DNA of 64,000 bases, from assembly GCA_017305835.1 (NCBI GenBank), contig JAFKJY010000042.1, positions 36,110 through 100,109 on the forward strand. Reading direction: 5' to 3'. Positions 2,946-48,755 of this stretch are shown here, one piece after another (the first letter of the stretch is position 1; every line of letters begins with the position of its first letter). The notes beneath the pieces were generated by a model. The model was not told the DNA's origin. It made no database searches and saw only the letters and a list, made by a program, of their open reading frames with translations. The translations under genes were made by a program, and so were the position numbers. Source of the stretch: Hyphomicrobiales bacterium (lineage in GTDB: Bacteria > Pseudomonadota > Alphaproteobacteria > Rhizobiales > Rhizobiaceae).

Positions 2946-3020
2946 GCGCCCATCGTCTATCGGTCAGGACGCCACCCTTTCACGGTGGAGAGAGGGGTTC
3001 GATTCCCCTTGGGCGTACCA
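2946..3020 (+). tRNA. tRNA-Glu(TTC)
   Basis: Acceptor GCGCCCA/TGGGCGT, anticodon arm CCACC-CTTTCAC-GGTGG, T-loop TTCGATT, encoded CCA. Confidence 0.97.
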
Positions 3021-3021
3021 T
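3004..3021 (+). repeat. attL core TCCCCTTGGGCGTACCAT
   Basis: Exact 18-bp copy at 48738-48755; corresponds to the tRNA 3' end. Confidence 0.92.
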
Positions 3022-7935: not shown

Positions 7936-9186
7936 ATGTCCGGCTACGGCGTTCGCCTATTTAGGCCCACATCGTATCCGCGAGACGTCGCTGCCAAGAC
8001 AGACCTCAAGGCATGGGCGCTGGCGACTTCTGCGCTGCTTTTCCTGTTCATCGGGTTTGCGAAAGGAACGATCGATCTCCCCGTAGATGTCACCATTCTC
8101 GCTTGTCTGGTGCTCTGCCTGGCGTTGATCCCGTATTTCAGAACGGCAGCCTCCCCAACCTCACCTGTCACGCTGGCGCTTGCTGCGCTGATCATGTGGC
8201 TAGCCTTTCGGCTGCTGCCCGACTTCCCGGCATGGGGACTGCGGAAACTGGCCACGGTCGTTCTTTTCGGCGTCCCCGCGTTCATTGCGGGGATCGTCAT
8301 CGCCAAAGATGAGAGGCTGCGCGGGGCAACAATGCGTATTTTGGCCTATGCAGGGCTGCCTGCATCGGCTGCTGTCATCGCGGTTGCAGCGATGGGCAAC
8401 CCCTACGCATTTGCTGCGATCGGCTCTGGTGGCTATCAGTTGACGGGGATCTTCTTAGCGCTGTCGGCTGTGTCGGCAGCGGTCATCCGCCAACCCGTGC
8501 TCGTAGGCGTGGCGGCCCTTGGATGTGCCGTCACTGGTCACATATCCAGCGCTCTGTTCGGTCTCGTCGCGACAGTTCTCGTTTTCGCGAACAACCGGGA
8601 TTGGCACACTGCCGGTGGGGCCGCGATCGCGACCGGCTGCACGATCACGCTGTACACCCTTCTCGTTGCGCCGCCTCTCGTCTTCATGCGCCTGCTCTGG
8701 AAGTTTGGCGGTGTGCTGCTTGTCTGGATGAACCAGCCGGTTTCGCCGGAGGAGGCCGCATCCAGTCTGGGCACCACGCACCTGGGCGCAGGGCTGAACT
8801 CGTTGCTGGAAGCCATGCCGGAAGAATCTCAGGAGTATCTCGTGGATGTCGCTGCGGCAGACCGCCTCGGCTATTTCTCAGCGGCTTGGCATTCGTTCAT
8901 GAGCGCGCCGCTTGCCGGTCATGGCTACGGAGCCGTTGAGTATCTCGGAGCCAGCTATCCACACAATGCGATCCTTGAAATAGCCGCCGAAACAGGATGC
9001 GTCGGAGCAGCACTCGCCCTAGCGACCTTTGGCTGTGCCACCGTGGCCGCGGCGCGGAGTCGCAACGGTTTCGTCATTGGAGCCTGCACAGTCTTGATGC
9101 TGACCGCGATGGTCAGCGGCTATTTCGGCACTAGGCTCCTCCTATTCGCATTTGGTCTTGCTGCGGGAGCTCGCCATGATCGTTGA
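7936..9186 (+). CDS. O-antigen ligase/polymerase (Wzy_C-like) polytopic membrane protein, moron
   Basis: About 10 hydrophobic helices; RLGYFSAAW, PLAGHGYG, YPHNAILEIAAETG motif; antisense to late genes. Confidence 0.75.
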   Translation: MSGYGVRLFRPTSYPRDVAAKTDLKAWALATSALLFLFIGFAKGTIDLPVDVTILACLVLCLALIPYFRTAASPTSPVTLALAALIMWLAFRLLPDFPAWGLRKLATVVLFGVPAFIAGIVIAKDERLRGATMRILAYAGLPASAAVIAVAAMGNPYAFAAIGSGGYQLTGIFLALSAVSAAVIRQPVLVGVAALGCAVTGHISSALFGLVATVLVFANNRDWHTAGGAAIATGCTITLYTLLVAPPLVFMRLLWKFGGVLLVWMNQPVSPEEAASSLGTTHLGAGLNSLLEAMPEESQEYLVDVAAADRLGYFSAAWHSFMSAPLAGHGYGAVEYLGASYPHNAILEIAAETGCVGAALALATFGCATVAAARSRNGFVIGACTVLMLTAMVSGYFGTRLLLFAFGLAAGARHDR

Positions 9187-10294: not shown

Positions 10295-11557
10295 CTAGAA
10301 CGTGCCGCCGTCGATCGTCGCGGCCGCGATGGTCGCCACGACGTTGGCCGTCGTCGCGATCTGCGTCGTGTTGGTGCCGGCCGCGGCCGTCGGCGCCACC
10401 GGCGTGCCGTCGAGCGTCGGCGACGTCAGGGTCTTGTTCGTCAGCGTCTGCGCGCCGGTCAGCGTCACGGCGCCGTCGATGTTCGTCTGGATGATCGACC
10501 AGTTCGAGCCCACGGTGGCCTGGTTTCCGCTCGACGTCCCGTCGGTCAGGCAGAGCAGGATGTCGCCGGCCTCGACATTGACGCCGGAGCCGCCTCCGAT
10601 CTTGCCAGCCACGCTGACGCGATAGGTGTCGCCGGCATTCGCGGCCGGGTAGTTCGGGTTGGCCGAGCAATCGAGGACGCCCTTGAACACCATCGCGTCG
10701 TTGGCCGCGATCAACCCGTCGGCATAGGCCTTCACCGCCTTCTGCGTGGCGATCTTGCTGTCGCTGTTCGCCGACAGCGACGTGTCGGTGTCGATGACGC
10801 CGGAGGCGAAGTCGGCCACCTCGAGGTTCGATATCGCGTTGCCGGTGCCGTTGGCGTCGAACGTCTTGTTCGTCAGGGTCGCCGTCGACGAGGCTGTGAG
10901 GTAGGAGCCGGCCGCCTGGTAGAGGCTGTCGAAGTACGTCTTCAGTGTCGCCTTCAGGTTGGCGAAGGTCAGCTTCTTCAGGACGTTCGAGGCCGCGCTG
11001 TCGATCAGGCCGAACTCGTCGGCATCCACCGGCGTCGACTTCGATGTGGCGCCGTGCATTGTCGAACCGACATTGCCGGCGTCGGTGACGTCGGCGCTCG
11101 CCTCGATGCCGGAAAGCTTCGTCTTCTCAGTGGCCGTGAAGACCTTGTTCGTCGTACCGTCGACATGGTTGTCGGCGTCGAACGCGTCGGCCTCGACATT
11201 GTTCGGATCGTAGACCGACTTGAGCATGTCGCCGCCGCCGGCGCTCGACACGCTGTCGTCGACATACTTCTTGTTCGCCACCTCGTAGCTGGACGTGGGC
11301 GCGGTCGACGGCGTCACCGGGAAGTCGGAGAACGTCTTCACGCCAGCCACGGTCTGCGCGCTCGTCTTGTCGACGAAGGCGCCCTTGCCGCCGATCGGGA
11401 TGACCGACGTGGCATTGGCGCTGCCGTCGTCTCCCTTGCCGTAATAGAGCGTGTCGTCCTGCTCGTTATAGGCCGGCTCTGCCGACAGGAGCGAAGACGG
11501 CGCGCCTGCGGCTCCGCCGGCCGCGCGCCGCTTCATGCGGATCAAGTTGTTCGCCAT
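10295..11557 (-). CDS. Tail fibre protein
   Basis: IRMKRR...EPAYNEQDDTLYYG N-terminus, ANKKYVDD and TLTNKT repeats, ends IDGGTF. Confidence 0.7.
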   Translation of the reverse strand: MANNLIRMKRRAAGGAAGAPSSLLSAEPAYNEQDDTLYYGKGDDGSANATSVIPIGGKGAFVDKTSAQTVAGVKTFSDFPVTPSTAPTSSYEVANKKYVDDSVSSAGGGDMLKSVYDPNNVEADAFDADNHVDGTTNKVFTATEKTKLSGIEASADVTDAGNVGSTMHGATSKSTPVDADEFGLIDSAASNVLKKLTFANLKATLKTYFDSLYQAAGSYLTASSTATLTNKTFDANGTGNAISNLEVADFASGVIDTDTSLSANSDSKIATQKAVKAYADGLIAANDAMVFKGVLDCSANPNYPAANAGDTYRVSVAGKIGGGSGVNVEAGDILLCLTDGTSSGNQATVGSNWSIIQTNIDGAVTLTGAQTLTNKTLTSPTLDGTPVAPTAAAGTNTTQIATTANVVATIAAATIDGGTF

Positions 11558-11571
11558 GTCTGATCTCCAGG

Positions 11572-11799
11572 TTAGAAATTGCCGCCGTCGATGACGAAGC
11601 CGTTTTCGAGCGAGCCGGCCGGCCCCTGCGGTCCTTGGGGGCCCACCGGACCCTGCGGTCCCTGGACGCCGCGCACGCCCATGCCGCTCACCGACACCGA
11701 CGCGCCGCCGGTCGCCTCGACGACCGCGACCGAGCCGTTGTCGAGGTTTCTCACCTCGACGACGACCTGTCGGTTGATGACGCTGACGGACGCTGTCAC
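11572..11799 (-). CDS. Short collagen-like tail protein
   Basis: GVQGPQGPVGPQGPQGPAG repeat; ends IDGGNF; GTG start overlaps upstream stop. Confidence 0.6.
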   Translation of the reverse strand: MTASVSVINRQVVVEVRNLDNGSVAVVEATGGASVSVSGMGVRGVQGPQGPVGPQGPQGPAGSLENGFVIDGGNF

Positions 11800-12591: not shown

Positions 12592-15039
12592 CTATGCCCA
12601 GGCGTCTCGGCCGTTGCCGGATGCGTCGGAATACTCAGTGCCCGCACCGCGGAAGTCGGAGGCGTAACTTACCGAAGCCGAGCCAGCGACGCGGAGACCG
12701 TAAGCAGGCGCGTAAGTGCCGGGATCAAGGACATTGCCCACGACGACCGCCCTCCCGCCGTAGTCGGAGGTCATGTAGATGCAGGCCGTGCCTGCCCCGC
12801 CCGCGGCGCTCATCCGGGAGAAGATGTTGCCGTTGAGCGCCAGCGTCCCCGAGCCCAATCCGACGACAATGCCGTAGCCGACCCAATTGGTGATGATGTT
12901 GTTCGCCACGATCGTCTGGTCCGCGTAGACGTTGACGTGGATGGGAACCGAAGCGGTGCTCGGCGTAGCATTGCCATAGCCGCGGATGACGTTGCCCGTC
13001 ACGACGAGCTGCCACGAAGTCCCGAGTGTGCCGCTGGCGCCGCCCTGAACCGTGATCCCGAGCGCAGGGGTCACGCCGGCCGAGGTGCCGTCGGGAAGCC
13101 TCGTATCGATGATGTTTTTCGCGATGATGTTCTGGTAACCGGCATAGCTCGCCGCTGAGCCTGAACTGTTGCCGGCCATGATGCCGTACTTGCAGGCATA
13201 GATCTTGCAGTTGACGAACGTCATCTGGTAGCCGCCGTGGAAGTCCAGCGCCTCCCAGATCTGCGGTCCGATGAACGTGGTGCCGTCCACGTTGCAGTCG
13301 ATCGGGAAGTGGTTGTTGGCGCGCGGTGTGCCGGCGTTTGGATCGCTGCTATAGCCGACCGTGTCGTGCGTGAGCGCGCAGCCATAGGCGTTGCTGCTTA
13401 TGCCGACGGCATCCAGCATGACGATCGAACCGCCGCGCATCCGGAACCGCTGTGGCGATTCCATCATCAGCCCGGCATAGGCGATGTCCCAGAGATGACA
13501 GTCCTCGAAGACGACGTCATCAGCCCACCGCGTCCACACGCCTTGTAGCCCGGCGCCGTGGATCTTGCAGCGATAAAAGCCCATCCCGACGGCACGGTCT
13601 GTGCGCGACGTGCCCTGCTGGCGGACGATGTCGTGCGCGTTGACCGCCGTACCTTTGCCGCCGCCTCCCGAGAGCTCGACTGCGACCCAGGTTACCCGAG
13701 CCGATTTGCCCACGGTGATTTGGGCGCCATCGTCATCCTTGTCGCTCGACAGATGGCCGCTCCAGACCGTGCAACCGGTATCGATCGTGAGCGTCGTGTA
13801 TTTGTAGGTCTTCGCCTCGAGGTAGATGACGACACCGGCGGCAATGTCGTCGAACATCGCCTGCAGCGCATCAGTGTCGTCGGTCGTACCGTCGCCCACG
13901 GCGCCGTAGTCGGACGGAACGACAAGACCGCCACGCGAGACCGCCGTTTCGAGGTCGGCAAGCACGTCCGCAAGAGTGTTCCCCTCGCCGTCGACGACCA
14001 TCGACGTGGTCGTGACGCCGAGCGGCACGATCTCAAAGACATCCCAGTCGATCGGCACGCCGTCGCCGACCGCCTCGCTGAACGACAAGGCGCCAGCTGA
14101 CAGCGTGTAGCCGCTCGTTATGCGGCGCCCGTCGATATAGATGTGGGTGTTGGCCGCTTCGGCCTCGTCCGGCAGCGTGAAGTCGGTCTCGACACCGTCG
14201 CTGACCGCGCTGCCGCTGTTGATCGTTCCGGCCACCTGGGTGGCGTCGACCCATCCCGTGCCGTTCCAGCGGCGCATGAGATCGGATGTAGTGTTCGTGT
14301 AGAGTTGGCCCGTTACCGGGCTTCCGCCCGCGGCGGCCGTCGCCGCAGCATCGTTGGCGAAGGCGCCGAGATAGAGATCCCGGATCGCGGCAAGAGCAGC
14401 CTCGGCGGCCGCCTGCACCGCGGCAGCATCGCCGTAGGTGAAGAAGCGGTAGGCGCCGTCCTCGTCGATCTGGACGAGCGCGGCCATGCCGGCAATGACG
14501 TAGTCCGCCGGGATCGGGTCGCCGATATTGGTGACGATGGCGCGCGGCGTCTCCCCATTGATGGCGAGCGTCATCGCCCCCGAGTTCGTCGCCGTGAAAT
14601 TGACCGAGACTAGCGCGCGGTAGGGCTCGGTCGCGAAGGTGGCGTCGACCGTCGCCTGCACCGCATTGGCGGTTCCGGTGCCGGTATTCAGCGCGTGGAT
14701 GATCGCCGCCGGCAGTCCCCCGACCCTTCTCCAGCCGGCAGGCGACGCCGACCAGATGAAGGTGCCCGTATTGGCGACGGTACCGCCGACGACCGGATCG
14801 GTGTGCGTGCCCGCGTCCGGGCCGTAGACCTGCGCCGGCTGGCCCGTATGCGCGCCCGTGATCGCCGACAGCCCCGACCACGTCACCTGGTCGATGCGCC
14901 CGACGACCGCGCCGTCGAGCGCCCGCTCCATCTCGGTCGACCAGACGACGGCCTCGCCATTGTCCACCTGCCGCGGATTGCCTGCTGCATCGCGGCCGGC
15001 AAAGACGTCCTTGCCCAGCTTCGTCAGGGGAAGCGTCAT
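12592..15039 (-). CDS. Tailspike with parallel beta-helix (pectate-lyase-like depolymerase) domain
   Basis: DYGAVGDGTTDDTDALQ cap motif followed by repeated N-x-I/G-N-x-I beta-helix rungs. Confidence 0.8.
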   Translation of the reverse strand: MTLPLTKLGKDVFAGRDAAGNPRQVDNGEAVVWSTEMERALDGAVVGRIDQVTWSGLSAITGAHTGQPAQVYGPDAGTHTDPVVGGTVANTGTFIWSASPAGWRRVGGLPAAIIHALNTGTGTANAVQATVDATFATEPYRALVSVNFTATNSGAMTLAINGETPRAIVTNIGDPIPADYVIAGMAALVQIDEDGAYRFFTYGDAAAVQAAAEAALAAIRDLYLGAFANDAAATAAAGGSPVTGQLYTNTTSDLMRRWNGTGWVDATQVAGTINSGSAVSDGVETDFTLPDEAEAANTHIYIDGRRITSGYTLSAGALSFSEAVGDGVPIDWDVFEIVPLGVTTTSMVVDGEGNTLADVLADLETAVSRGGLVVPSDYGAVGDGTTDDTDALQAMFDDIAAGVVIYLEAKTYKYTTLTIDTGCTVWSGHLSSDKDDDGAQITVGKSARVTWVAVELSGGGGKGTAVNAHDIVRQQGTSRTDRAVGMGFYRCKIHGAGLQGVWTRWADDVVFEDCHLWDIAYAGLMMESPQRFRMRGGSIVMLDAVGISSNAYGCALTHDTVGYSSDPNAGTPRANNHFPIDCNVDGTTFIGPQIWEALDFHGGYQMTFVNCKIYACKYGIMAGNSSGSAASYAGYQNIIAKNIIDTRLPDGTSAGVTPALGITVQGGASGTLGTSWQLVVTGNVIRGYGNATPSTASVPIHVNVYADQTIVANNIITNWVGYGIVVGLGSGTLALNGNIFSRMSAAGGAGTACIYMTSDYGGRAVVVGNVLDPGTYAPAYGLRVAGSASVSYASDFRGAGTEYSDASGNGRDAWA

Positions 15040-15079: not shown

Positions 15080-17272
15080 TCAGGGATCTGGCGTGTGGAA
15101 TACGAACTCGTAGTCGTAGGCGGGACCGGCCGTCCCGTTCGAGCTGTAGGCGATGATCTGGTAGTTCACCGCCTCGCCCTCCACGTCGACGACGGGCGGA
15201 GACGGATCTTCCATCACGTAGGCGGTACCCGGTCGGGCATTCTGTTGGTCGACCTGCTCCCATGGGCCGTAGTCGCTGCCGCCGTCGATCCGATAGCGCC
15301 GCCTGAGCCGCATCTCCACGGCGCTGAGCGAGCCGATGGTGACGTCCGAAAACGTCCCGAGGCTGCCGAGGCTGCCGACCTCGGGAGCAGCAGGAGCGCC
15401 GTTGGCGAGCGCCAGCGTGATGTGGACGGTCGGCGACCAGTCCGAAGGGTTGTCGTCTGCATCGAAGGACTGCACGCGCAGGTCGGCCTGCGTGCCGGGT
15501 GTGCCAGCGGCCGCATAGGCGAAGTACGGCCCCCTCACCTCGTCCATCGAGGACCATGCGTTCGGATTGCCGGCCGTGTAGGTCCGGTAGATCGCCTGCT
15601 CTGCCGAGGATACGACGTCGACGCTGTAGGGGAAGCGAATCTCATAGGCGCCGGACGGATATCTCACCAGGATCGGCGTTCCGGCCATCGGCGTCGGCAC
15701 CTCGCTTTCGTAGACGATCTCCGGCACCTGCTCCGGCGCCGGCACTTCCATCGTCGCCGGGTTCCACGGCTGGCCGATCAGTTCGGCCGGCCAGACCGCA
15801 TAAGGTATCTCCACCTGACCGTTCGCGTCGTCGATCCGCGGCGGCGCCAGCTTGCACAGCGGGCTTTCGTCGAGGTCCGGAAACTCGATGTTGGCGTAGC
15901 TGCGCCCCCATGCCCACAGCCCGTCCCAGTTCGTCACCGTGCGGCCAGTATCGGCCCGCGCCAGCAGGAACTGTCGGCGAGCGAGGCGCTGCGCCTGGGA
16001 AGCCGACGGGCAGAACGGCAGCTTGATGTCCAGCAGCTTCTCGCCGTAGCGGTCGATCTCCGCGTCGACCCTCGCCCACGCCGCGCCGGTCAGGTCGATG
16101 TCGGCCATCTCGTAGTTGCGCTCGGCCGAGTAGTACTGCACGCGGCAGAGATTGGGCCGCTCCACCGCCTCCGGTCCGCTCTTCCAGTCCCACTCGCCCG
16201 CGTGAAGGACCGGCAGCGTGCCCTCGCTGGCCGGGCTGTCGTCGACGAGCCGGATCCTGATCTTGCCGTCGTCCGAGGTCTGAATCTCGGCGCCGACGCT
16301 GTCGAGCACCTGCTGCATCGTGTCGCCACGCAGAGATTCCGACAGCCAGACGCCCGAGCAGCGCGAGCGTGGCTCGGTGCCGCTCCGCGTGGCGACGAGG
16401 GCGTCCGCCTTGTCGGCTTCCGCCGCGATGTCGGTCCAGTCGAAGTCCGCGGCCGTCAGCTCCGGGTAGCGCATCATGATCCGCGCCGCGCACAGGATGC
16501 CGTTCTGCGACCACCTCCAAGTTGCGCGACTGGTCGGGCTCTGCGTCCCGTCGCGCGGGTCGTAGCAGGTGTCGTAGCGCCCGATGATCGCGACGTCCGG
16601 CTCGCCGCCCTGGAAGAGCTTGTTGAACTTGGCGATGCCGTCCTCGCTGTCGAGGCCCGGCGAGATGTAGCGCGCCAGCGTCTGTGCGATGCCGCGCACG
16701 CGGTGCGCCGGGGTCCACAGCGCCGGAAACTCGCTGATCAGATCCGGCCAGGCATTCTCGTCGTCGCTGCCGGCCTTGGTGAAGACGTGGATGAATGAAC
16801 CGCCGGTGTTGGCGTAGGGCGGCGACGAGACGCGTCCGTCGCCTTCCACGACGACCGTCCGCCCGCCGACGCGGTATTCCTCGATTGCGACCAGCGGTCC
16901 CCGCGCATGCGCGATAAGCCGGTAGCGGCTGTTCGTCTTCGTGTTGCCGAAGACCTTCAGCCCGCCCAGCAGGCAACGACCGATCGCATTGACCTCGGAT
17001 GCCTCCGTGCTCTCGAAAACGCTGCGATACTGCCCGGGATCAGCCACGCGCTGCTGCTGCCCACCGCCAAGCAACCCACTGCCGAGCAAGGAAACGCCGA
17101 CGCTGAGCGCGATGGATAGGCCGGTGTAGATGGCCGAGAACGAAAAGACGCTGCCGAGCGCACCCGAGAATAAGGTGTATGCAAGCGGCGTGATTACGAA
17201 ATCCGCCCGGGCGTGCGCCGTCATCGCCAGCAGCGACGCACCGCCGGCCAGGGCAATCTTGAACCACTTCAT
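15080..17272 (-). CDS. Tail tip / host-specificity (hub) protein
   Basis: 730 aa after minor tail genes; IGRYDTCYDPRD, WSQNGILCAA, RPNLCRVQY patterns. Confidence 0.7.
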   Translation of the reverse strand: MKWFKIALAGGASLLAMTAHARADFVITPLAYTLFSGALGSVFSFSAIYTGLSIALSVGVSLLGSGLLGGGQQQRVADPGQYRSVFESTEASEVNAIGRCLLGGLKVFGNTKTNSRYRLIAHARGPLVAIEEYRVGGRTVVVEGDGRVSSPPYANTGGSFIHVFTKAGSDDENAWPDLISEFPALWTPAHRVRGIAQTLARYISPGLDSEDGIAKFNKLFQGGEPDVAIIGRYDTCYDPRDGTQSPTSRATWRWSQNGILCAARIMMRYPELTAADFDWTDIAAEADKADALVATRSGTEPRSRCSGVWLSESLRGDTMQQVLDSVGAEIQTSDDGKIRIRLVDDSPASEGTLPVLHAGEWDWKSGPEAVERPNLCRVQYYSAERNYEMADIDLTGAAWARVDAEIDRYGEKLLDIKLPFCPSASQAQRLARRQFLLARADTGRTVTNWDGLWAWGRSYANIEFPDLDESPLCKLAPPRIDDANGQVEIPYAVWPAELIGQPWNPATMEVPAPEQVPEIVYESEVPTPMAGTPILVRYPSGAYEIRFPYSVDVVSSAEQAIYRTYTAGNPNAWSSMDEVRGPYFAYAAAGTPGTQADLRVQSFDADDNPSDWSPTVHITLALANGAPAAPEVGSLGSLGTFSDVTIGSLSAVEMRLRRRYRIDGGSDYGPWEQVDQQNARPGTAYVMEDPSPPVVDVEGEAVNYQIIAYSSNGTAGPAYDYEFVFHTPDP

Positions 17273-17673
17273 CACGAGAGCGCCCAGACCTTCTCGAACT
17301 GCCGCACCGGCCCGAACCAAGCGAAGCCGCCCTCGTCGCGCCTGATGGCGAGGATGCGGCCCCGCGCGAGGATGCCGCCGACCTGCCCGTAGAGCCGCGT
17401 GTCGACCACGGCGACGTCGCCGAGCTCCGGCTCGCCGAACCGCTCGACGATGCCCGTGCTTGCCAGGAAATGATCCCATGCCGCGACCAGGCTGCCGTGC
17501 GATGCCACGATCGCATGCGCCTCGTCCCTGCTGGCATAGGCGGGCAGCCGCACGTCATGTCCCAGCCGACGCGCCCACATGCACGGCGTGGCCGAGCAGT
17601 CCGACCGGCCCCATACCGGCGGCGCGGCGTTCTCCTCATCGAGGAAGGCGCGCAGTTTGGCCTTCAGGTCCAT
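17272..17673 (-). CDS. Tail assembly protein (DUF6950/NlpC-P60-like)
   Basis: VWGRSDC motif, GDVAVV; position before tail tip. Confidence 0.6.
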   Translation of the reverse strand: MDLKAKLRAFLDEENAAPPVWGRSDCSATPCMWARRLGHDVRLPAYASRDEAHAIVASHGSLVAAWDHFLASTGIVERFGEPELGDVAVVDTRLYGQVGGILARGRILAIRRDEGGFAWFGPVRQFEKVWALS

Positions 17674-36937: not shown

Positions 36938-37149
36938 GCGCTCCCCCGTTCGGGCGCGCGGGAACGATCCGCGTTCCGCATCTGCCGAAGCGCGATCGTC
37001 AGCGCGCTGTGCGCTTCGTCGTCGAGGGCGCCGGTTGCGACGACCACGTTGGCGAACGTCAGAACCAGCACGGCCAGCGCATGTTTCGGTTCGTCAGGCA
37101 GCATGTCGATGATGGCATCTGACAGAAACTTGTTCTCGGCAGGGGTCAT
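36934..37149 (-). CDS. Hypothetical protein
   Basis: 71 aa, ATGA overlaps. Confidence 0.5.
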   Translation of the reverse strand: MTPAENKFLSDAIIDMLPDEPKHALAVLVLTFANVVVATGALDDEAHSALTIALRQMRNADRSRAPERGSA

Positions 37150-38378
37150 GCCGGCACCGCCTTTCCGGCATTTCCGCGCTTCCGAGCCGGGGGCCTCGCA
37201 GACGCCTTCTCGGCCTCGAACCCCCATACGTCCCAGCCTGCCCGCGGCGCGCGCGCGAACAGTTCGATCTTGGCGATGCCGGGATAGAGCCGCTCGATCT
37301 GTTCGGCGAACCAGTCGGGCTTGGCCGAGTGCGGACCCTTGCGCTCGCGGTGCACCGTCTCCGGTTGCGTGCCGGGCAGCGGAGCGACGGCATCGCCGCG
37401 CCGGCCGATCAGCAGCAGCTCGTGCCGGTCGCGGCCCCAATAGCCGGTGCCGGCGACCTCCTTGTCCCAGATCCAGTGGTGCACATAGGTGAAGCCCCAC
37501 GCCTGCAGCGTGCGCAGCCCGTCGAGCAGCATCGGGTTGGTCGCCCACAGGAACAGAACCGCGTCGCGCGCAGCCACCCCGCCGAGCTCGGCCAGCAGGC
37601 CGGCGATCTGCTCGGTCTCCATGGTGGGGTAGTGGTTCTCGGCGCTCTTCTCGCGGCCGGTCGCCTCTTCGCGCACGATGAAACGCCAAGGCGGATCGGC
37701 ATAGACGACGGGATAGATCCGCTCGACCTTGCCCGGAGCGGCAGACCGCCCGCGTTCCGCGACCATCTCCATATGCGCCAGACGGACCGTGTGGCGCGCG
37801 CGCTGGCGCGCCTCGCGGATCGCCTTCGCGCGCGCCACGATGTCCCGTTCCTCACGCCGCAGCACTTCGATCTGCGCTTCATGTTCGAGTTCGGACAGCG
37901 CCTCTCCGGCGTGCACGGAAACGCGCCCCTCGCGGATCGCCTCGACGAGTTCCGCCGCGCCGTGCTCGTGGATGCGCCTGGCGGCTGCCACCGCGCGCTC
38001 CGAGATCGACAGTCGTCGCGCGGCCTCGCGGGTCTGCAGATTTGCAGGCCCTGCCGTGTGCTGGTTGAGGCCGCGATCCCAATCGACGATGCGTGCCGCC
38101 ACCATCGCCCGCTGGCTTTCCGTCAGGTGGCGCCGGTGCAGGTTCTTCGACAGCACGAAGCCGAGCGGATCGTCGCCGTCATAGTCGACGAAGTGCGGCT
38201 CGATCTCGGCGAACCGGCAGGCGGCGAGCCGATTGCGCCCGTCGAGGATCATGTCCTCGTGGAGCACGATCGGATCGCGCTGGCCGTATGTGCAGATGTC
38301 GTCGGCCAGTTCCGCGGTCTCCTTGTCGGAGAGCATCGGAAACAGTTCTGCCAGGGGATGGGGGCGAAGATCGTCCAT
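37146..38378 (-). CDS. ParB-like N-terminus fused to MT-A70 family N6-adenine methyltransferase
   Basis: HPLAELFP...ILDGRNR ParB part; YADPPW, LFLWAT, GTGYW, HSAKP, KIELFAR MT-A70 part. Confidence 0.88.
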   Translation of the reverse strand: MDDLRPHPLAELFPMLSDKETAELADDICTYGQRDPIVLHEDMILDGRNRLAACRFAEIEPHFVDYDGDDPLGFVLSKNLHRRHLTESQRAMVAARIVDWDRGLNQHTAGPANLQTREAARRLSISERAVAAARRIHEHGAAELVEAIREGRVSVHAGEALSELEHEAQIEVLRREERDIVARAKAIREARQRARHTVRLAHMEMVAERGRSAAPGKVERIYPVVYADPPWRFIVREEATGREKSAENHYPTMETEQIAGLLAELGGVAARDAVLFLWATNPMLLDGLRTLQAWGFTYVHHWIWDKEVAGTGYWGRDRHELLLIGRRGDAVAPLPGTQPETVHRERKGPHSAKPDWFAEQIERLYPGIAKIELFARAPRAGWDVWGFEAEKASARPPARKRGNAGKAVPA

Positions 38379-38385
38379 CCAGTCC

Positions 38386-38913
38386 TCACCCGTTCGCCGC
38401 CAGCCAGGCGCCGACCTCGTCGGAGGAAGCGCCGAGTGCCGCGGCAATCGCGCCAGCGTCCGCGCCGCCGGCGCGCATGCGCGCGATCAGCCGACGCTCG
38501 TCGGCCTCGAAATGCGGGATCTCGACATCGGCCGAAGGCCGCAAGGGCGACCGCCCGTCGCGCGTCGTCGCGCGCCCCGCCGGAGCGACAGGAGGCGAAG
38601 CCTCCGGTACGTCGCGCGAGGCATAATCCTCTTCCACGAGAGCCCCGACGATCTCGTCGAGCAGATCCTCGTTCCACCACCTCGCCTTGCGGGCGTTGTT
38701 GAGGTGCGCCGAGGCGGCGGCCGGCGAGATGAAGGCGCAGCAGCGCGACAGCCCGGCCTTGCGCGCCTGCGGCCACGCCTCCGTCAGCGCGGCATAGGCG
38801 AGCACGCGGCTGCGTCCGCCCGGCACGCCGGACGCGATCGACAGCGGATCGTCGCCGTGGAACCGCGCGGCCATGACGATGGCCGTGGCTATTCTGTCGG
38901 CCGAGGGGAACAT
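38386..38913 (-). CDS. Hypothetical protein
   Basis: 175 aa between cII and methylase, C-terminal HTH-like segment. Confidence 0.55.
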   Translation of the reverse strand: MFPSADRIATAIVMAARFHGDDPLSIASGVPGGRSRVLAYAALTEAWPQARKAGLSRCCAFISPAAASAHLNNARKARWWNEDLLDEIVGALVEEDYASRDVPEASPPVAPAGRATTRDGRSPLRPSADVEIPHFEADERRLIARMRAGGADAGAIAAALGASSDEVGAWLAANG

Positions 38914-39590: not shown

Positions 39591-39665
39591 TGGTTGCGGG
39601 GGCGGGATTCGAACCCGCGACCTCTTTGCTTTGAGGCTGGCGAGCTGCCGCTGCTCTACCCCGGC
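39591..39665 (-). pseudogene. Degenerate tRNA-fMet-like element
   Basis: Intact D-arm, T-arm GCGGG-TTCGAAT-CCCGC and CCCCGCAACCA end; anticodon stem unpaired, loop CTCAAAG. Confidence 0.75.
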
Positions 39666-43643: not shown

Positions 43644-44510
43644 ATGCAGACTGACATCGTCCGGCCGCAGGCCGGCCTGCCGATCTTCCGCGCCGAGGGG
43701 CGCGACCGGCTCTTCCTCCGCGCCGGCGCGCAGATTGCCGGTGCGGACAGCCGCGCCGACGCCGAAACCGAGATCGCCCTGCCCGAGTTCGCCGCCGGCA
43801 CGGACTATCTCATTCGCAGCGATGCCGGCGCTCTCGTCGTCGCGCCGGCCGGCGCGGACCTGGCCGACGCGATCGGCGGCTTCCATTTCGCGCCGGGCGA
43901 CAACGCGTCCGCCCGCGCCGGCGGCGACGACGCGCCGGCGATCAACCCGTTCTCGATCTGGGACGCCGGCTTCCGCCCGGCCTGCGATCCGCGCGGCATG
44001 GCGCTGGTCGACCTGCCCGACGGCCGACGTCTCTGGGTCGACATCTACCTGCTCGGCACGGACCATCTGGCGCAGGGCACCAGCCGTCACGGCGCGACGA
44101 TCGCCGACGGCCACAGGAACAAGCCGAAGAAGCCGGACGGCAGCCGCCACGACGGCCTCGATTTCCTGACGGCCGTCGACATCTATGCCGGCCACGGCAA
44201 GCGGCTGCTCACCTATGACGAGTTCCGTGCCGCCGCCTTCGGCGTGACGGAGAAGAGCTCGGCCGACGACAAGCCGGAGACCGCCGGCCTCGACGCGGCA
44301 CGCACCAGCCGGTTCGGCCTGATGCAGGCGACTGGCAATCTCTGGGTCTGGGGAACCGACGGCGACCCCGACGATCCGCGCCCCTCGCTCTTCGGCGGCT
44401 CGTGGCTCAGCGGTCAGTACGCGGGCTCGCGCTACGCGGACCTCGACAGCTGGCCGGACTACTCCGTCGAGGGCTTCTCCGCGCGGGGCTGCCGTGACCA
44501 TGAATCCTGA
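43644..44510 (+). CDS. DGR target 1: Mtd-like C-type-lectin-fold protein
   Basis: AGTDY, GGFHFAPG, INPFSIWD.GFRP, DPRGM, WVDIYLLG, HGKRL, GNLWVWG, FGGSW, ARGCRDH motifs as recalled for BPP-1 Mtd; VR at C-terminus. Confidence 0.92.
   Translation: MQTDIVRPQAGLPIFRAEGRDRLFLRAGAQIAGADSRADAETEIALPEFAAGTDYLIRSDAGALVVAPAGADLADAIGGFHFAPGDNASARAGGDDAPAINPFSIWDAGFRPACDPRGMALVDLPDGRRLWVDIYLLGTDHLAQGTSRHGATIADGHRNKPKKPDGSRHDGLDFLTAVDIYAGHGKRLLTYDEFRAAAFGVTEKSSADDKPETAGLDAARTSRFGLMQATGNLWVWGTDGDPDDPRPSLFGGSWLSGQYAGSRYADLDSWPDYSVEGFSARGCRDHES
44377..44498 (+). repeat. DGR variable repeat VR1
   Basis: 122-bp match to TR with 13 mismatches, all at TR adenines. Confidence 0.97.
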
Positions 44511-44514
44511 CACC

Positions 44515-44534
44515 GCCGGCGCGAAAGCGCCGGC
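44515..44534 (+). promoter_or_regulatory. DGR target-recognition hairpin after VR1
   Basis: GCCGGCGC-GAAA-GCGCCGGC (8-bp stem, 4-nt loop). Confidence 0.9.
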
Positions 44535-44565
44535 CACCCTTCCCACACCAACCAGGAGGCCGTCC

Positions 44566-45471
44566 ATGGACGCCACAGTCAAGCAGACCCGTATCGATCG
44601 CGCCATCGCCGACGCGCCGATCTTCATCGTCACCGGCCGCGCGCGAATAGCCCTGCGCGCCGGAACCGTCATCCACCGGGACGGATTGCCGATCGCGCTG
44701 GACGGTGACCTGCCCATCTCGATCGACCTGGCCGACCTCGCGCCCGGAACGGACTTCGCCGTGCTGATCGAGGACGGCGCCGCCCGCGCGGTGCCGTGCC
44801 CCGGCGCCATCCCCGAAGGTGCGATCGGCGGCTTCCACTATGCCCCGAGCGGCAACGCAGAGGCCCGCGCCGGCGGCGACGGCCAGCCGGCCATCAACCC
44901 GTTCTCCTGCTGGGATATCGGCTTCCGCCCCGGCTGCGATCCGCGCGGCATGACGCTCGTCATGGTCGGCGGGCACCGCCTCTGGGTCGACATCTACCTG
45001 CTCGGCACGGACCATTTGGCGCAGGGCACCAGCCGCTGCGGCGCGGCGATCGCCGACGGCCGCGACCTGCCGCAGCGCGTCGACGGCAAGGGCGCCTGTC
45101 GCAAGCTCGACCATGCGACGGCGGTCGAGATCTACGCACATCACGGCAAGCGGCTGCTCGGCGCCGAGGAGTTCTTCGCCGCGGCCTTCGGCGTCGCCGA
45201 GCGGAAGTCGCTGGACGACGAGCCGTCGATCGCCGGTGCGCTGGACGGCAGGGGCGAGCGTTTCGTCAGCGCCCGCGGGCTGCACGGCGCCACCGGCACC
45301 ATGTGGCAGTGGGGCACCGACGGCGACCCCGACGAACCGCGCCCCTCGATCTTCGGCGGCTCGTGGATCGACGGTCAGGACGCGGGCTCGCGCTACGCGT
45401 ACCTCGTCGGCTGGCCGGACAACTCCGTCGGGAGCCTCTCCGCGCGGGGCTGCCGTGACCATGAATCCTGA
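44566..45471 (+). CDS. DGR target 2: Mtd-like C-type-lectin-fold protein
   Basis: AGGAGG RBS; same Mtd motifs as target 1; VR at C-terminus. Confidence 0.92.
   Translation: MDATVKQTRIDRAIADAPIFIVTGRARIALRAGTVIHRDGLPIALDGDLPISIDLADLAPGTDFAVLIEDGAARAVPCPGAIPEGAIGGFHYAPSGNAEARAGGDGQPAINPFSCWDIGFRPGCDPRGMTLVMVGGHRLWVDIYLLGTDHLAQGTSRCGAAIADGRDLPQRVDGKGACRKLDHATAVEIYAHHGKRLLGAEEFFAAAFGVAERKSLDDEPSIAGALDGRGERFVSARGLHGATGTMWQWGTDGDPDEPRPSIFGGSWIDGQDAGSRYAYLVGWPDNSVGSLSARGCRDHES
45338..45459 (+). repeat. DGR variable repeat VR2
   Basis: 122-bp match to TR with 12 mismatches, all at TR adenines. Confidence 0.97.
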
Positions 45472-45475
45472 TGCC

Positions 45476-45495
45476 GCCGGCGCGAAAGCGCCGGC
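45476..45495 (+). promoter_or_regulatory. DGR target-recognition hairpin after VR2
   Basis: Identical GCCGGCGC-GAAA-GCGCCGGC. Confidence 0.9.
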
Positions 45496-45515
45496 CGCCT
45501 GAACGGGGCCGACCG

Positions 45516-45881
45516 ATGATCAGGGACAATCCGGCCAGCACGACGGGGCTGGCGATCATGGAGAGATACGAGGCCGCGATGGCCTATCTCTATCCGATCG
45601 TCCAGCGCTTTCCGCGCCGCCACGGCAAGCTGCGCGACGCGCTGCTGGACACGATGATCGCTGAGGTCGGCCTCATCTATCACGCGGCGAAGTCGCGGCA
45701 GGCCTCGCGCCTGCACGCGGCCGACGCCAATCTAGCGACGCTGCGTTTCTGGTTGCGCTTCGCGGCCGATCCCTCGCTCAAGATCCTCTCGCCTGCCCAG
45801 CACAGGGCCGCCCTGCGGCTCCTGGCCGAGGTCGGCGCGATGCTCGGCGTCTGGATCGCCTCCACGAAGGGCAACGGGTGA
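45516..45881 (+). CDS. avd: DGR accessory variability determinant (four-helix bundle)
   Basis: ERYE...YLYP...PRRHG, ADANLATLRFWLRF, EVGAMLGVWI; position between VR and TR. Confidence 0.93.
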   Translation: MIRDNPASTTGLAIMERYEAAMAYLYPIVQRFPRRHGKLRDALLDTMIAEVGLIYHAAKSRQASRLHAADANLATLRFWLRFAADPSLKILSPAQHRAALRLLAEVGAMLGVWIASTKGNG

Positions 45882-45896
45882 ACGGGGATAGGATGG

Positions 45897-46018
45897 CGCG
45901 CCCATCGATCTTCGGCGGCTCGTGGATCAACGGTCAGAACGCGGGCTCGCGCTACGCGAACCTCGACAACTGGCCGGACAACTCCAACGAGAACATCTCC
46001 GCGCGGGGCTGCCGTGAC
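45897..46018 (+). ncRNA. DGR template repeat TR
   Basis: 24 adenines, 7 in-frame AAC codons; 3' end diverges (GACCCATTT) from the VR IMH (CATGAATCCTGA). Confidence 0.96.
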
Positions 46019-46306
46019 GACCCATTTCCGGCGCGGCGGCGGCCACGGCCCCGCCGGCTCGCTTCCCGCGCCCGTCCAGGGCGCATGGGTGGTCAGCCCG
46101 GACATCCGGCTTCGGCGAACACATTGCAGGGTCCGGCAGAGCGGGGAGTAGCCCCTTGCGCATGCGAGAGGTCGAAAACCGCGGCCGGCGTTTCATCTGC
46201 CTCACGCGCCGCACCGTGGCCGCAAGCGGCCACTGGCGCTCCGGCCGGGCGCGCAACGATGCGCGGCCGCCGGTCGGCGTCTCGGCCTTCGGCCGGAGGA
46301 TGCATC
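46019..46306 (+). ncRNA. TR-RT spacer, probable structured 3' part of the DGR RNA
   Basis: 288 nt between TR and RT with hairpins such as GTGGCCG-CAAG-CGGCCAC (46216-46233). Confidence 0.6.
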
Positions 46307-47308
46307 ATGGCCAAGAAGTACCGCAACCTGATCGGCCGTATCGTGGCCGACGACAACATGCTGGCCGCCTACCGGCGCACGGCTGCCGGCCGGCGTCTCT
46401 CGACCGGCTACCTTGAGTTCAAGGAATTCTCGCCGCTCAACCTCGATCGGCTGGCGGCCGACATGGCGAGCGGCGCCTATCGGCCGGGCGCGCAGCGCGA
46501 GTTCATGATCTACGACCCGAAGCTCCGGCTGATCTCGGCGCTTCCCTTCCGCGACAGGGTCGCGCAACATGCGGTCTGCCGCGTCATCGAGCCGATCTTC
46601 GATGCGACGCTGTTGCCACGCAGCTTTGCATGCCGGAAGGGCAAGGGCACGCATGCCGGCGTCGTCGCGCTGCAGGCCGAATTGCGGCGCCTGACGCGCG
46701 ACGGCGCGTCGCTCTATGCGCTGAAGACGGACTTCTCCCGCTACTTCGCCTCGATCGAGCGGCCGGTGCTCTGGCGCATGATCGAGGCCAAGATTTCCTG
46801 CCGCGCGACGCTGCGCGTCATCGAGGCGATGGTTCCGCGCGAGGGCATCGGCCTGCCGATCGGCAACCTCACCTCGCAGATCCTCGCCAACGTCTATTCC
46901 GGCGCCGTCGATCGTCACCTGCAGCAGGGCCTCGGCGAGCGCTGCTGGTATCGCTACATGGACGATCTCGTCGTGCTCGGCCGGTCGGTCGCGCATCTGC
47001 GCGCCGTCCGCGACGAGATCGAGCGGCTGGCCCGCGAAGAGCTCGGCCTCCGCTTCTCGAAATGGTCGGTCCAACCGATCAGCCGCGGCGTCAATTTCCT
47101 CGGCTACCGCATCTGGCCCCGCCACAAGCTGCTGCGCCGTGACAGCGTCGCCCGCGCCAGGCGCAAGATCGCCCGCTACCGCGCCGCCGGCGACACGGCC
47201 CGCCTGGAGCAATTCCTGTCTGCGTGGACAGGCCATGCGTCGTGGGCCGACACGCGCAACCTGCTGGCGAGCCTCGGCGTCGGAGGTCGCGATGGCGCTG
47301 CATCCTGA
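46307..47308 (+). CDS. DGR reverse transcriptase (BPP-1 Brt-like)
   Basis: 333 aa; FRDRVAQHA, ACRKGKGTHAG, KTDFSRYFASI, GLPIGNLTSQ, RYMDD, VNFLGYRI; GGAGG RBS. Confidence 0.96.
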   Translation: MAKKYRNLIGRIVADDNMLAAYRRTAAGRRLSTGYLEFKEFSPLNLDRLAADMASGAYRPGAQREFMIYDPKLRLISALPFRDRVAQHAVCRVIEPIFDATLLPRSFACRKGKGTHAGVVALQAELRRLTRDGASLYALKTDFSRYFASIERPVLWRMIEAKISCRATLRVIEAMVPREGIGLPIGNLTSQILANVYSGAVDRHLQQGLGERCWYRYMDDLVVLGRSVAHLRAVRDEIERLAREELGLRFSKWSVQPISRGVNFLGYRIWPRHKLLRRDSVARARRKIARYRAAGDTARLEQFLSAWTGHASWADTRNLLASLGVGGRDGAAS

Positions 47309-47546
47309 CGGTCTCGCCTACCCGCCGCGCGGCATGTCGCGCGAGGAGGCGGCGCGCTATATCGGCGTCGGCACGACTAAGTTCGACCAGCTCGTCGCCG
47401 ACCGCCGCATGCCGCGCCCGAAGCAGATCGACGGGCGTGTGGTCTGGGACAGGGTCGCGCTCGACGCCTGCTTCGCGGAACTGCCGAGCGAGGCCAGCGT
47501 CAATCGCATCGACGAGTTGCTTGCAAGAGCCGGCCAGCGGAAATAG
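47292..47546 (+). CDS. Excisionase-like (AlpA/MerR-type HTH) protein
   Basis: PRGMSREEAARYIGVGTTKFDQLV...PKQIDGRVVWDR; directly before integrase. Confidence 0.85.
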   Translation: MALHPDGLAYPPRGMSREEAARYIGVGTTKFDQLVADRRMPRPKQIDGRVVWDRVALDACFAELPSEASVNRIDELLARAGQRK

Positions 47547-47555
47547 CGTCCGGCC

Positions 47556-48668
47556 ATGGACGATTATCCCGGCCTCGGCTCCTACCTCGACCGTCACGGC
47601 ACGCGCCGCTGGCGCTATCGCCACAGAGGCAGGACGGTGTCCTTGCCCTGCGGGCCCGGCGAACCCGGCTTCGACGAGGCCTATCAGGCGGCTGTCGAGG
47701 GACGCCCCATCCGCAAGGCCGAGATCACGGTCCATCCTCACGCCGCCGCCCCTCGGTCTCTGGCGGCAGCCTGGAGGCTGGTGCGCCAGTCGGCCGAATG
47801 GCAGGTGCTGGACGATCTGACCAGGGCGAACACCACGCGCGTCGCCGAGCGTTTCCTGCTGTCGCCGGTGATCGAGGGCGAGCCTGATCTCTGGAGCGAC
47901 ATGCCGGTCGCAGACGTCAAGCGGCGGCACATCAAGAAGATCCTCGCCGATCGTGCGGCGACGCCACACGCCGCCAAGAACCTACTGACGCTCATCCGCA
48001 AGCTGATCCTCGCGGCCCTCGACGAGGAGTGGATCGAGGCTGACCCGACCTACCGGGTGAAATGGCGGCCGGCCTACGTCGGATTCCGCGCATGGACGGC
48101 CGACGAGATGGCTGCATTCGAGGCGCGCTGGGCAGTCGGCTCGACCCCGAGGCTCGTCTATGCCCTGGCCCTCTGGCTGGGAAACAGGCGTTCCGACCTG
48201 GTGCGGCTCCGGTGGGACCAGCTGGTCGAGCGAAAGCTTCTCATCGACGGCAAGATCGAGACGCTGCGCGGCTTCCAGATCGTGCAGAAGAAGACGGGCA
48301 AGGTTCTGTTCGTGCCGGAAACCCCGATGCTGGCGGAGGCTCTGGCGGCGACAGTGCGGCGAGGCGAGACAGTCGTCGTGACGGCCTATGGGGAGCCGTT
48401 CACCGCCAAGTCGATTACCGGACGCATGGCCGACTGGACGCACTCGGCCGGCCTGCCGAAGGGCTGCACGCTGCACGGTTTACGCAAGACGCTGGGCAAG
48501 CTCCTGGCCGAGGGCGGCGCATCTACCCGCCAGCTCATGGACGTACTCGGCCACGACGACATGGAGCACGCGGAACTCTACTCGCGCGAAGCGAACCAGG
48601 TCCTCCTCGCCGCCGCCGGCATGGAGCGCGTTGTCACGCTCGTCGGCAAGCGTAAGGTCGCCAGATGA
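47556..48668 (+). CDS. Prophage tyrosine integrase
   Basis: GNRRSDL, HGLRKT, LGH, LYS catalytic residues; 70 bp from attR. Confidence 0.93.
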   Translation: MDDYPGLGSYLDRHGTRRWRYRHRGRTVSLPCGPGEPGFDEAYQAAVEGRPIRKAEITVHPHAAAPRSLAAAWRLVRQSAEWQVLDDLTRANTTRVAERFLLSPVIEGEPDLWSDMPVADVKRRHIKKILADRAATPHAAKNLLTLIRKLILAALDEEWIEADPTYRVKWRPAYVGFRAWTADEMAAFEARWAVGSTPRLVYALALWLGNRRSDLVRLRWDQLVERKLLIDGKIETLRGFQIVQKKTGKVLFVPETPMLAEALAATVRRGETVVVTAYGEPFTAKSITGRMADWTHSAGLPKGCTLHGLRKTLGKLLAEGGASTRQLMDVLGHDDMEHAELYSREANQVLLAAAGMERVVTLVGKRKVAR

Positions 48669-48737: not shown

Positions 48738-48755
48738 TCCCCTTGGGCGTACCAT
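48738..48755 (+). repeat. attR core
   Basis: Exact 18-bp copy of 3004-3021. Confidence 0.92.

Follow-up and report, generated by a model that had tools for sequence, protein, structure and literature searches.

A probable complete BPP-1-type diversity-generating retroelement with two target genes in a tailed prophage of a Rhizobiales bacterium

Introduction

The diversity-generating retroelement (DGR) of Bordetella phage BPP-1, a short-tailed phage, has been dissected experimentally. Its cassette contains one target gene, encoding Mtd, and is located after the tail-fibre gene bbp9 and before the lysis genes. The N-terminal beta-prism of Mtd is thought to dock the protein on the tail fibre (PMC10743442). 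Homing in BPP-1 needs a hairpin with a GC stem of 7-10 bp and a 4-nt GRNA loop, 4-34 bp downstream (PMC3240598), and the reverse transcriptases (RTs) of DGRs share the signature [I/V/L]GxxxSQ and YxDD (PMC7826257). In the catalogue of Wu et al. 2018 (PMC5758913), cassettes with two targets make up 13% of DGRs and a CLec-type VR in an Mtd domain is found in 3% of targets; the Mtd-type targets were described as near Bordetella Mtd in size.

In this study, a stretch of 64,000 nt (the window) was analysed, and we estimate with a probability of about 0.88 that it contains a complete BPP-1-type DGR, carried by a tailed prophage of approximately 45.7 kb in the tRNA-Glu gene of a Rhizobiales bacterium.

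Results

The host DNA belongs to a wastewater Rhizobiales bacterium. The prophage is bounded by an 18-bp exact direct repeat, TCCCCTTGGGCGTACCAT, present as attR (48738..48755) and as its partner attL (3004-3021), the latter at the 3' terminus of the tRNA-Glu gene (2946-3020). Its genes include those for terminase, portal, protease, capsid, tape measure, tail fibres (10295-11557, 12592-15039 and 15080-17479), lysin, repressor, Xis and integrase. Both this phage and BPP-1 are temperate and integrated at a tRNA; in contrast to BPP-1, the present phage resides in an alphaproteobacterial host and encodes a tape-measure protein, which points to a long tail. The DGR RT was found in none of 60 related genomes, indicating that the prophage is strain-specific. 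Each of the 11 congeners has the left flank and tRNA-Glu in conserved form; a joined-flank search found the right flank adjacent in none of these 11, and an empty attachment site was not demonstrated.

The DGR cassette occupies the xis/int end of the prophage, between the repressor and xis-int. Unlike that of BPP-1, it follows small ORFs on the repressor side and is followed by a Xis/AlpA-like HTH gene (47292..47546; PHROG 25900, E 2e-15; PHROG 66 excisionase, E 2.8e-6), the start of which overlaps the RT stop by 17 nt, and by the tyrosine integrase gene of the prophage (47556..48668; Pfam Phage_integrase, E 5.7e-14). These two genes and every cassette feature described below are on the + strand. 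A promoter and terminator scan gave signals at chance level. The order of target, avd, TR, spacer RNA and RT is common to both phages, with two tandem targets here against the single one of BPP-1, and the cassettes show 66-67% similarity by blastn. The sequence-only reading had recognised the BPP-1 layout, which is borne out by the homology of Mtd, Avd/Bbp7, bRT, the Phage_DGR RNA and the GC-stem/GAAA hairpin; at the protein level, identity to BPP-1 is 55% for RT, 45% for Avd and 35-38% for the targets.

Target gene 1 (T1, 43644..44510) encodes 288 aa and target gene 2 (T2, 44566..45471) encodes 301 aa, preceded by the ribosome-binding sites AAGGAG and AGGAGG, respectively. The two proteins are paralogues with 59% aa identity, and both match Pfam mtd_2nd (PF21916) above the cut-off and PHROG 11262, a tail protein family (E 5.5e-72 for T1 and 3.6e-67 for T2). 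T1 matched PDB Mtd 1yu4 with an E value of 3.6e-45, its residues 13-286 corresponding to Mtd 65-377, and T2 aligned by blastp to Mtd 54-377 with 35% identity. The identity of 35-38% extends across the beta-sandwich and the C-terminal lectin domain of the Mtd family, both of which are present in both targets (aligned to Mtd 53-377). An AF2 model of T1 (pLDDT 90.4) was matched by Foldseek to 1yu0 with a TMq of 0.86, and the next matches were FGE folds. Both targets lack Mtd residues 1-52, the N-terminal beta-prism present in BPP-1: their alignments start at Mtd residues 53/54, and their matches to the PHROG 11262 profile begin no earlier than position 73-83.

The accessory variability determinant gene avd (45516..45881; possible alternative start at 45549) encodes 121 aa, which scored 110.5 bits against NCBIfam NF033474 DivGenRetAVD (equivalog cut-off 80) and matched Pfam bAvd (E 2.4e-26) and PDB Bbp7 4dwl (E 6e-27). 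The spacer RNA (46056..46189), located 3' of TR and between TR and RT, matched Rfam Phage_DGR (RF03022) over model positions 1-127 of 127 with 62.4 bits (gathering score 50). The RT gene (46307..47308; 333 aa, Pfam RVT_1) matched PDB bRT 8ub7 with an E value of 1.9e-114 over residues 1-321. The enzyme carries the DGR-clade signature as IGNLTSQ and YMDD, and keeps R74 and I181, the latter in IGNLTSQ. As had been read from the sequence, the frames of Avd and the YMDD RT are both unbroken.

TR (45897..46018) is 122 nt in length, with 24 adenines and seven AAC codons. Ungapped comparison gave 13 mismatches to VR1 (44377..44498) and 12 to VR2 (45338..45459), the same counts and peptide readings as first reported. 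Each of the 25 mismatches is at an adenine of TR (A>G 13, A>T 7, A>C 5); realignment detected none at the 196 non-A sites (2 x 98) of the two VRs. The hypergeometric probability of this restriction to A is 2.3e-11 for VR1, 2.1e-10 for VR2 and 4.7e-21 jointly. That one TR had written both VRs was likewise proposed from the sequence, and the comparison agrees: both genes equal TR at all 98 non-A repeat positions, whereas upstream of the repeat they are merely 48-93% identical in 60-nt blocks, which identifies a single TR as the source of both. The repeats thus record a flow of information from TR to VR in recent evolution. The genome contains only these two VRs and a single RT of DGR type. Contigs from ten public metagenome runs contain TR, VR1 and VR2 in exactly the same sequence; therefore, the repeats are not an assembly artefact.

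The homology ends exactly at 46018 in TR, 44498 in VR1 and 45459 in VR2. Both VRs finish in the GC-rich GCGCGGGGCTGCCGTGAC, which is IMH-like by sequence, and then diverge from TR. A target-recognition hairpin/cruciform, GCCGGCGC GAAA GCGCCGGC, follows VR1 after 16 nt (44515..44534), and an identical one follows VR2 at the same distance (45476..45495). The first has an 8-bp stem, a GAAA loop and a DNA fold of -12.7 kcal/mol. A GC-rich VR end followed by a GC stem with GAAA loop is also found in BPP-1, the hairpin of which (CGGGGCC GAAA GGCCCCG) is alike in design, and both hairpins here have the GC stem, GRNA loop and spacing described for homing (PMC3240598).

The codons of TR and of the BPP-1 TR align one to one, and AAC occupies homologous sites in the two; adenine mutagenesis of the present TR cannot yield any stop codon. 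Among 61 family members, the AAC-coded positions have the highest entropy (3.0-3.5 bits) and lie between invariant scaffold residues. Judging from these entropy peaks, the Mtd homology across the lectin domain and the AF2 fold, VR is predicted to encode the solvent-exposed, ligand-binding face of a C-terminal C-type-lectin fold. Sixteen codons per target are randomisable, giving approximately 4.5e13 possible peptides each on a fixed scaffold.

Related cassettes were found in Mesorhizobium, Shinella, Rhizobium, Nitrobacter, Afipia, Hyphomicrobium and IMG/VR contigs. This alphaproteobacterial clade has RTs 65-78% identical to the present one, short Mtd-homologue targets, and avd and TR arranged alike. 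The nearest RT is just 78% identical, and the VR alleles here are unique. Metagenome contigs of IMG/VR and JGI were scanned four times for TR with each adenine set to N, in a long version and in a shorter one also allowing T/C at 45934; there were 0 matches, and hence no identical TR. Over 59 non-redundant relatives, A sites account for 895 of the 986 mismatches between TR and VR. At least two VRs are present in 24 of the 59: two in 23 relatives (19 of them tandem) and three in one. T1 and T2 are the positional orthologues of the upstream and RT-proximal copies in these relatives, which form separate clades across genera; the target duplication is therefore old. The cassettes of relatives adjoin repressor, xis/int or ParB-methylase/terminase genes, and in some of them xis-int directly follows RT.

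Discussion

By homology with the BPP-1 system, TR and the downstream spacer would be transcribed, and the RT-Avd complex would prime on the spacer RNA and make cDNA of TR, with misincorporation solely opposite adenines. This cDNA would then replace the last 122 bp of either tandem Mtd-like gene, each target being marked by its GC-rich 3' end and 8-bp/GAAA hairpin. In each protein, 16 codons on the ligand-binding face of the C-type lectin would be randomised and the scaffold kept constant. By analogy, the most likely role is to vary the receptor specificity of the phage through two differentiated receptor-binding paralogues. Since the cassette sits between the repressor and xis-int rather than after the tail-fibre genes, incorporation of the targets into the virion is unproven.

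The Mtd-type multi-target DGRs of Wu et al. 2018 are likewise phage-associated, with two targets and a CLec-type VR in an Mtd domain. In contrast to them, the targets here and in the whole alphaproteobacterial clade have about 290-300 aa. We tentatively raise the idea that the prophage clade of Rhizobiaceae and Phyllobacteriaceae is a distinct DGR subtype, in which one TR rewrites two side-by-side short Mtd paralogues of ancient duplication and conserved position, both without the beta-prism, whose operon is separate from the tail module and runs into xis-int; we think this rather doubtful. If it were true, the phage would have either two receptor specificities that evolve independently or a heteromeric tip for binding, and diversification and expression would be tied to the lysogeny/excision switch and not to late structural gene expression.

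It is also conceivable, albeit unlikely, that the DGR is real and the short Mtd-like proteins are not receptor-binding proteins of the tail tip, but might act on a variable ligand in the lysogen or in early infection. The missing 52 N-terminal residues are consistent with this, as is a gene position unlike that of BPP-1, in a repressor-side operon adjoining xis/int, with no terminator-like site on the + strand between 40834 and int (in a scan at chance level). The cassettes of relatives, moreover, never lie beside homologues of the tail-fibre genes of this prophage. A split anchor, i.e., Mtd_N-like starts in the tail ORFs, was considered and rejected at the sequence level: Pfam detected no Mtd_N-like domain in these ORFs at E<=0.1, and permissive blastp and tblastn searches with Mtd 1-75 gave no significant match in six frames of the whole window. 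On the other side stand the Mtd identity over both domains, the annotation of the PHROG as tail protein, and N-termini of T1 and T2 without an obvious signal peptide by eye. After excision, the cassette would lie near attP, with the lysis and tail genes across attP; the BPP-1 arrangement is similar, its DGR lying approximately 1.8 kb from attP. Targets throughout the clade are typically short, so another mode of docking probably exists. We regard a receptor-binding role as the more likely.

Past activity of the DGR is well supported by the absence of non-A differences and by two comparisons with relatives. In a relative of about 94% identity from other sludge metagenomes, TR position 45934 has C in place of T, as does the corresponding position in each of its two VRs, and the remaining VR differences are all at A sites. 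The comparison of VRs in relatives, which had been suggested along with the initial reading, showed in addition that TR is identical among the sister contigs L082, L085 and L093, with the differences in their two VRs confined to A sites.

It is reasonable but unproven that the element may still be active. An improbable alternative is that it wrote both VRs once and no longer homes, for instance through an undetected regulatory or host-factor defect, with the VRs now fixed alleles. In Logan contigs from the ten runs (at least three studies, 2016-2020), VR1 and VR2 each showed exactly one allele, identical to the window, over about four years; these runs were read as assembled contigs, which drop rare variants, and near-clonality is to be expected of a lysogen population. 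Extra VR "variant" pieces in the runs proved to be TR or the other VR aligned to the query, or else to come from a related element. No RNA runs that could show expression were found among public runs, which also fits a silenced element. Against silencing, the open frames are all intact, the catalytic and adenine-mutagenesis residues are conserved, and neither the spacer RNA nor either hairpin is disrupted. Decay would build up non-A differences, whereas the 2 x 98 sites have no non-A substitution and the flanking paralogous sequence diverges by 7-50%. Finally, the proposal that no retroelement acted and that the three repeats are plain paralogous sequence, point-mutated or homogenised by gene conversion, has nothing for it except that three similar repeats exist, and is refuted by the mismatch spectrum, as such processes cannot restrict 25 of 25 differences to the A's of one copy (P ~5e-21), here the non-coding copy that adjoins RT and Avd.

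In sum, the element leaves knowledge of how DGRs work unchanged, and two-target DGRs were already documented (PMC5758913); it adds a clean, fully intact example of the BPP-1 type, found in a prophage of an environmental alphaproteobacterium. In prophages of Rhizobiales, the cassette with two targets that are short Mtd homologues is a design that recurs and was established long ago. Members of this clade form a natural set for comparing how a single TR serves two targets that have differentiated from each other, by what means Mtd-like proteins dock when the beta-prism is missing, and whether DGR expression is tied to the lysogeny module.

Adenine-only mutagenesis and organization of the cassette

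The element in the window is a BPP-1-type diversity-generating retroelement (DGR) and a member of a large clade found in alphaproteobacterial prophages. The observation made in the sequence-only reading was confirmed, and its interpretation as a DGR is supported. In an ungapped comparison, the template repeat (TR, 45897-46018) differed at 13 positions from the variable repeat of target 1 (VR1, 44377-44498) and at 12 from that of target 2 (VR2, 45338-45459), exactly as had been counted. The claimed adenine-only spectrum also held: 25/25 mismatches lie at TR adenines (13 A>G, 7 A>T, 5 A>C), and the non-A positions are unchanged in both VR1 (0/98) and VR2 (0/98). Given 24 A in the 122 nt of the TR, mismatches confined to A would arise by chance with P = 2.3e-11 for VR1 and 2.1e-10 for VR2. 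Of the A sites, eight differ in both VRs, five in VR1 only, four in VR2 only, and seven in neither. Adenines occupy codon position 1 or 2 in 23/24 cases, seven codons are AAC, and no stop codon can be obtained by A changes; the computed repertoire per target is 15^7 x 4^9, or ~4.5e13 peptides. The peptides quoted earlier for the TR and VRs were read correctly. Genome-wide searches found neither a further VR nor a second DGR-type reverse transcriptase (RT).

The cassette runs target 1, target 2, avd, TR, structured spacer, RT. Target 1 (43644-44510, +) and target 2 (44566-45471, +) both match Pfam 'Mtd second domain' and PHROG 11262 'tail protein'. Their blastp identities to BPP-1 Mtd, residues 53-377, are 38% and 35%, respectively, and target 1 matches solved Mtd structures at E 3.6e-45. 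An AlphaFold2 target model with 61 family members as input (pLDDT 90.4, pTM 0.91) superposes on Mtd 1yu0 (TMq 0.86), and the next matches are formylglycine-generating-enzyme (C-type-lectin-like) folds. Avd (45516-45881, +) scores 110.5 bits on the NCBIfam equivalog NF033474 (cut-off 80) and matches Bbp7 (4dwl). The RT (46307-47308, +) is 55% identical to the cryo-EM bRT chain 8ub7 (E 1.9e-114) and keeps YMDD, the DGR signature IGNLTSQ (I181), and R74; R74 and I181 are two RT residues shown to promote adenine mutagenesis (PMC7826257). Between the TR and the RT, 46056-46189 is a full-length match to the Rfam family Phage_DGR (RF03022), above the gathering score. Both VRs end 3' in the GC-rich GCGCGGGGCTGCCGTGAC, with divergence from the TR starting beyond it. 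A hairpin, GCCGGCGC-GAAA-GCGCCGGC, lies 16 nt past the end of VR1 (44515-44534) and of VR2 (45476-45495). Guo et al. (PMC3240598) showed that homing depends on a GC stem of 7-10 bp that carries a GRNA loop and lies 4-34 bp past the VR; the BPP-1 hairpin, CGGGGCC-GAAA-GGCCCCG, has the same place after its VR. The two TRs align codon for codon, and the cassettes of BPP-1, BMP-1, and BIP-1 show 66-67% blastn similarity to that of the window. The proposed BPP-1 layout is thus borne out by Mtd-like targets, Avd, RT, Phage_DGR RNA, and hairpins.

Prophage context and distribution

An 18-bp direct repeat, TCCCCTTGGGCGTACCAT, at 3004-3021 (3' end of tRNA-Glu) and 48738-48755 (70 bp downstream of the integrase gene) encloses ~45.7 kb. 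The bracketed genes encode large terminase, portal, protease, HK97-type capsid, tape measure, three tail fibre/spike proteins, a lysin-like protein, a repressor, a Xis/AlpA-like HTH protein, and a tyrosine integrase. The minus strand carries the structural genes. The DGR is encoded on the plus strand, where it lies downstream of the repressor gene and of several small ORFs of unknown function and leads straight into xis and int. The xis-like gene (ATG 47292, GGAGG RBS) overlaps the RT 3' end by 17 nt (47292-47308), and int starts 10 nt past the xis stop. A scan of the + strand from 40834 to int, which performed at chance level, gave no terminator-like site. The same RT-xis-int succession is seen in three related loci (L014, L015, L077). 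In BPP-1, by contrast, the cassette comes after the tail-fibre gene bbp9, with the lysis genes and attP beyond it.

Several neighbouring features were also observed. An 815-aa tail spike (12592-15039, -) has a right-handed beta-helix with pectate-lyase/endosialidase-N-like segments, which suggests a polysaccharide-degrading receptor-binding protein besides the Mtd-like proteins. A 416-aa multi-pass membrane protein (7936-9186, +) has a below-threshold Wzy_C/O-antigen ligase match (E 1.8e-5, 25 bits vs cut-off 31.7); its gene lies in a lower-GC stretch (0.61), opposite in strand to the neighbouring lysis/tail genes, and is possibly a lysogenic-conversion moron. The early region contains a degenerate tRNA-like element (39595-39665, -), whose Rfam tRNA match of 33.1 bits barely exceeds the gathering score and which ARAGORN did not call. 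A ParB-like/DNA methyltransferase fusion (37146-38447, -; PHROG 21315, E 4e-169) is the window protein most common near relatives' cassettes (26 loci).

The RT search revealed 53 loci in species-representative genomes and >330 in IMG/VR. With the best 80 of the latter included, the closest RTs are from Mesorhizobium, other Rhizobiaceae/Phyllobacteriaceae, Nitrobacteraceae, Hyphomicrobium, and Paracoccus. Among 59 non-redundant relatives (RT >=65% identical, sufficient upstream sequence), 28 have one VR, 23 two (19 in tandem), one three, and seven none detected; pooled TR-VR mismatches are at A in 895/986 cases, and targets are short, normally ~290-300 aa. Two-target cassettes are frequent in this clade; a published DGR survey counts 13% of elements with two targets and gives a 3% share for targets of the Mtd type (PMC5758913). 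Some relatives carry a non-tandem second VR-bearing target, downstream of the RT or 2.4-6 kb upstream (L103, at 11611-11742; L080, L097, L120, L029). One Hyphomicrobium MAG locus (L028, 4221-7022) has one TR and three tandem Mtd-like targets, the RT-proximal two identical over residues 1-244 (non-VR), with 10 and 9 VR mismatches to the TR.

Three mildly unusual features are common to the clade: the Mtd beta-prism is missing from both targets, the paralogue pair is conserved in position, and the cassette adjoins xis-int outside the tail module. Together they define a reading of the clade as a distinct DGR subtype, which we consider unlikely. A beta-prism supplied by a separate tail ORF is unsupported at the sequence level, because no Mtd N-terminal domain was found anywhere in the window.

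Homing activity

Sequence comparison supplies four arguments for recent homing. First, the claim that a single TR writes two paralogues is upheld by zero non-A TR/VR differences, although the genes upstream of the VRs are just 48-93% identical (60-nt blocks). Second, a ~94% identical relative from other sludge metagenomes carries T->C at TR 45934 and at the matching site of both VRs, with the remaining VR differences from the window at A sites only; this non-A change thus passed from the TR into each of the two targets once the lineages had separated. Third, in the related loci L082, L085, and L093 (93-95% identical overall), whose VRs were compared as had been proposed, the TR is identical and both VRs differ at A sites only. 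Fourth, family column entropy peaks (3.0-3.5 bits) exactly at AAC-coded positions, amid invariant scaffold residues.

Ten bioreactor/wastewater metagenome runs (2016-2020, >=3 studies) contained window VR1, VR2, and TR exactly and no other allele. The result establishes no more than stability of the dominant alleles, because rare variants are lost in assembled contigs and some of the runs may duplicate others; it counts against present activity, or is at least not in its favour. In two public bioreactor/wastewater runs (X1, X3), a second contig over the TR 3' end and spacer (45961-46112; depth 3.6-4.4x vs ~10x) differs by 13 substitutions and 3 indels whose positions are not limited to A; a related but distinct DGR co-occurs in the same bioreactor community.

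Age of the target duplication

When target residues 1-244, which exclude the VR, were used for a maximum-likelihood tree, target 1 grouped with upstream copies in a supported clade (7/8 rows; 98/80). Target 2 joined a supported clade consisting solely of RT-proximal copies (7/7; 95/95), which come from Mesorhizobium, Shinella, Rhizobium, and viral contigs. This placement shows that the duplication is old and that both paralogues have kept their positions while one TR writes their VRs.
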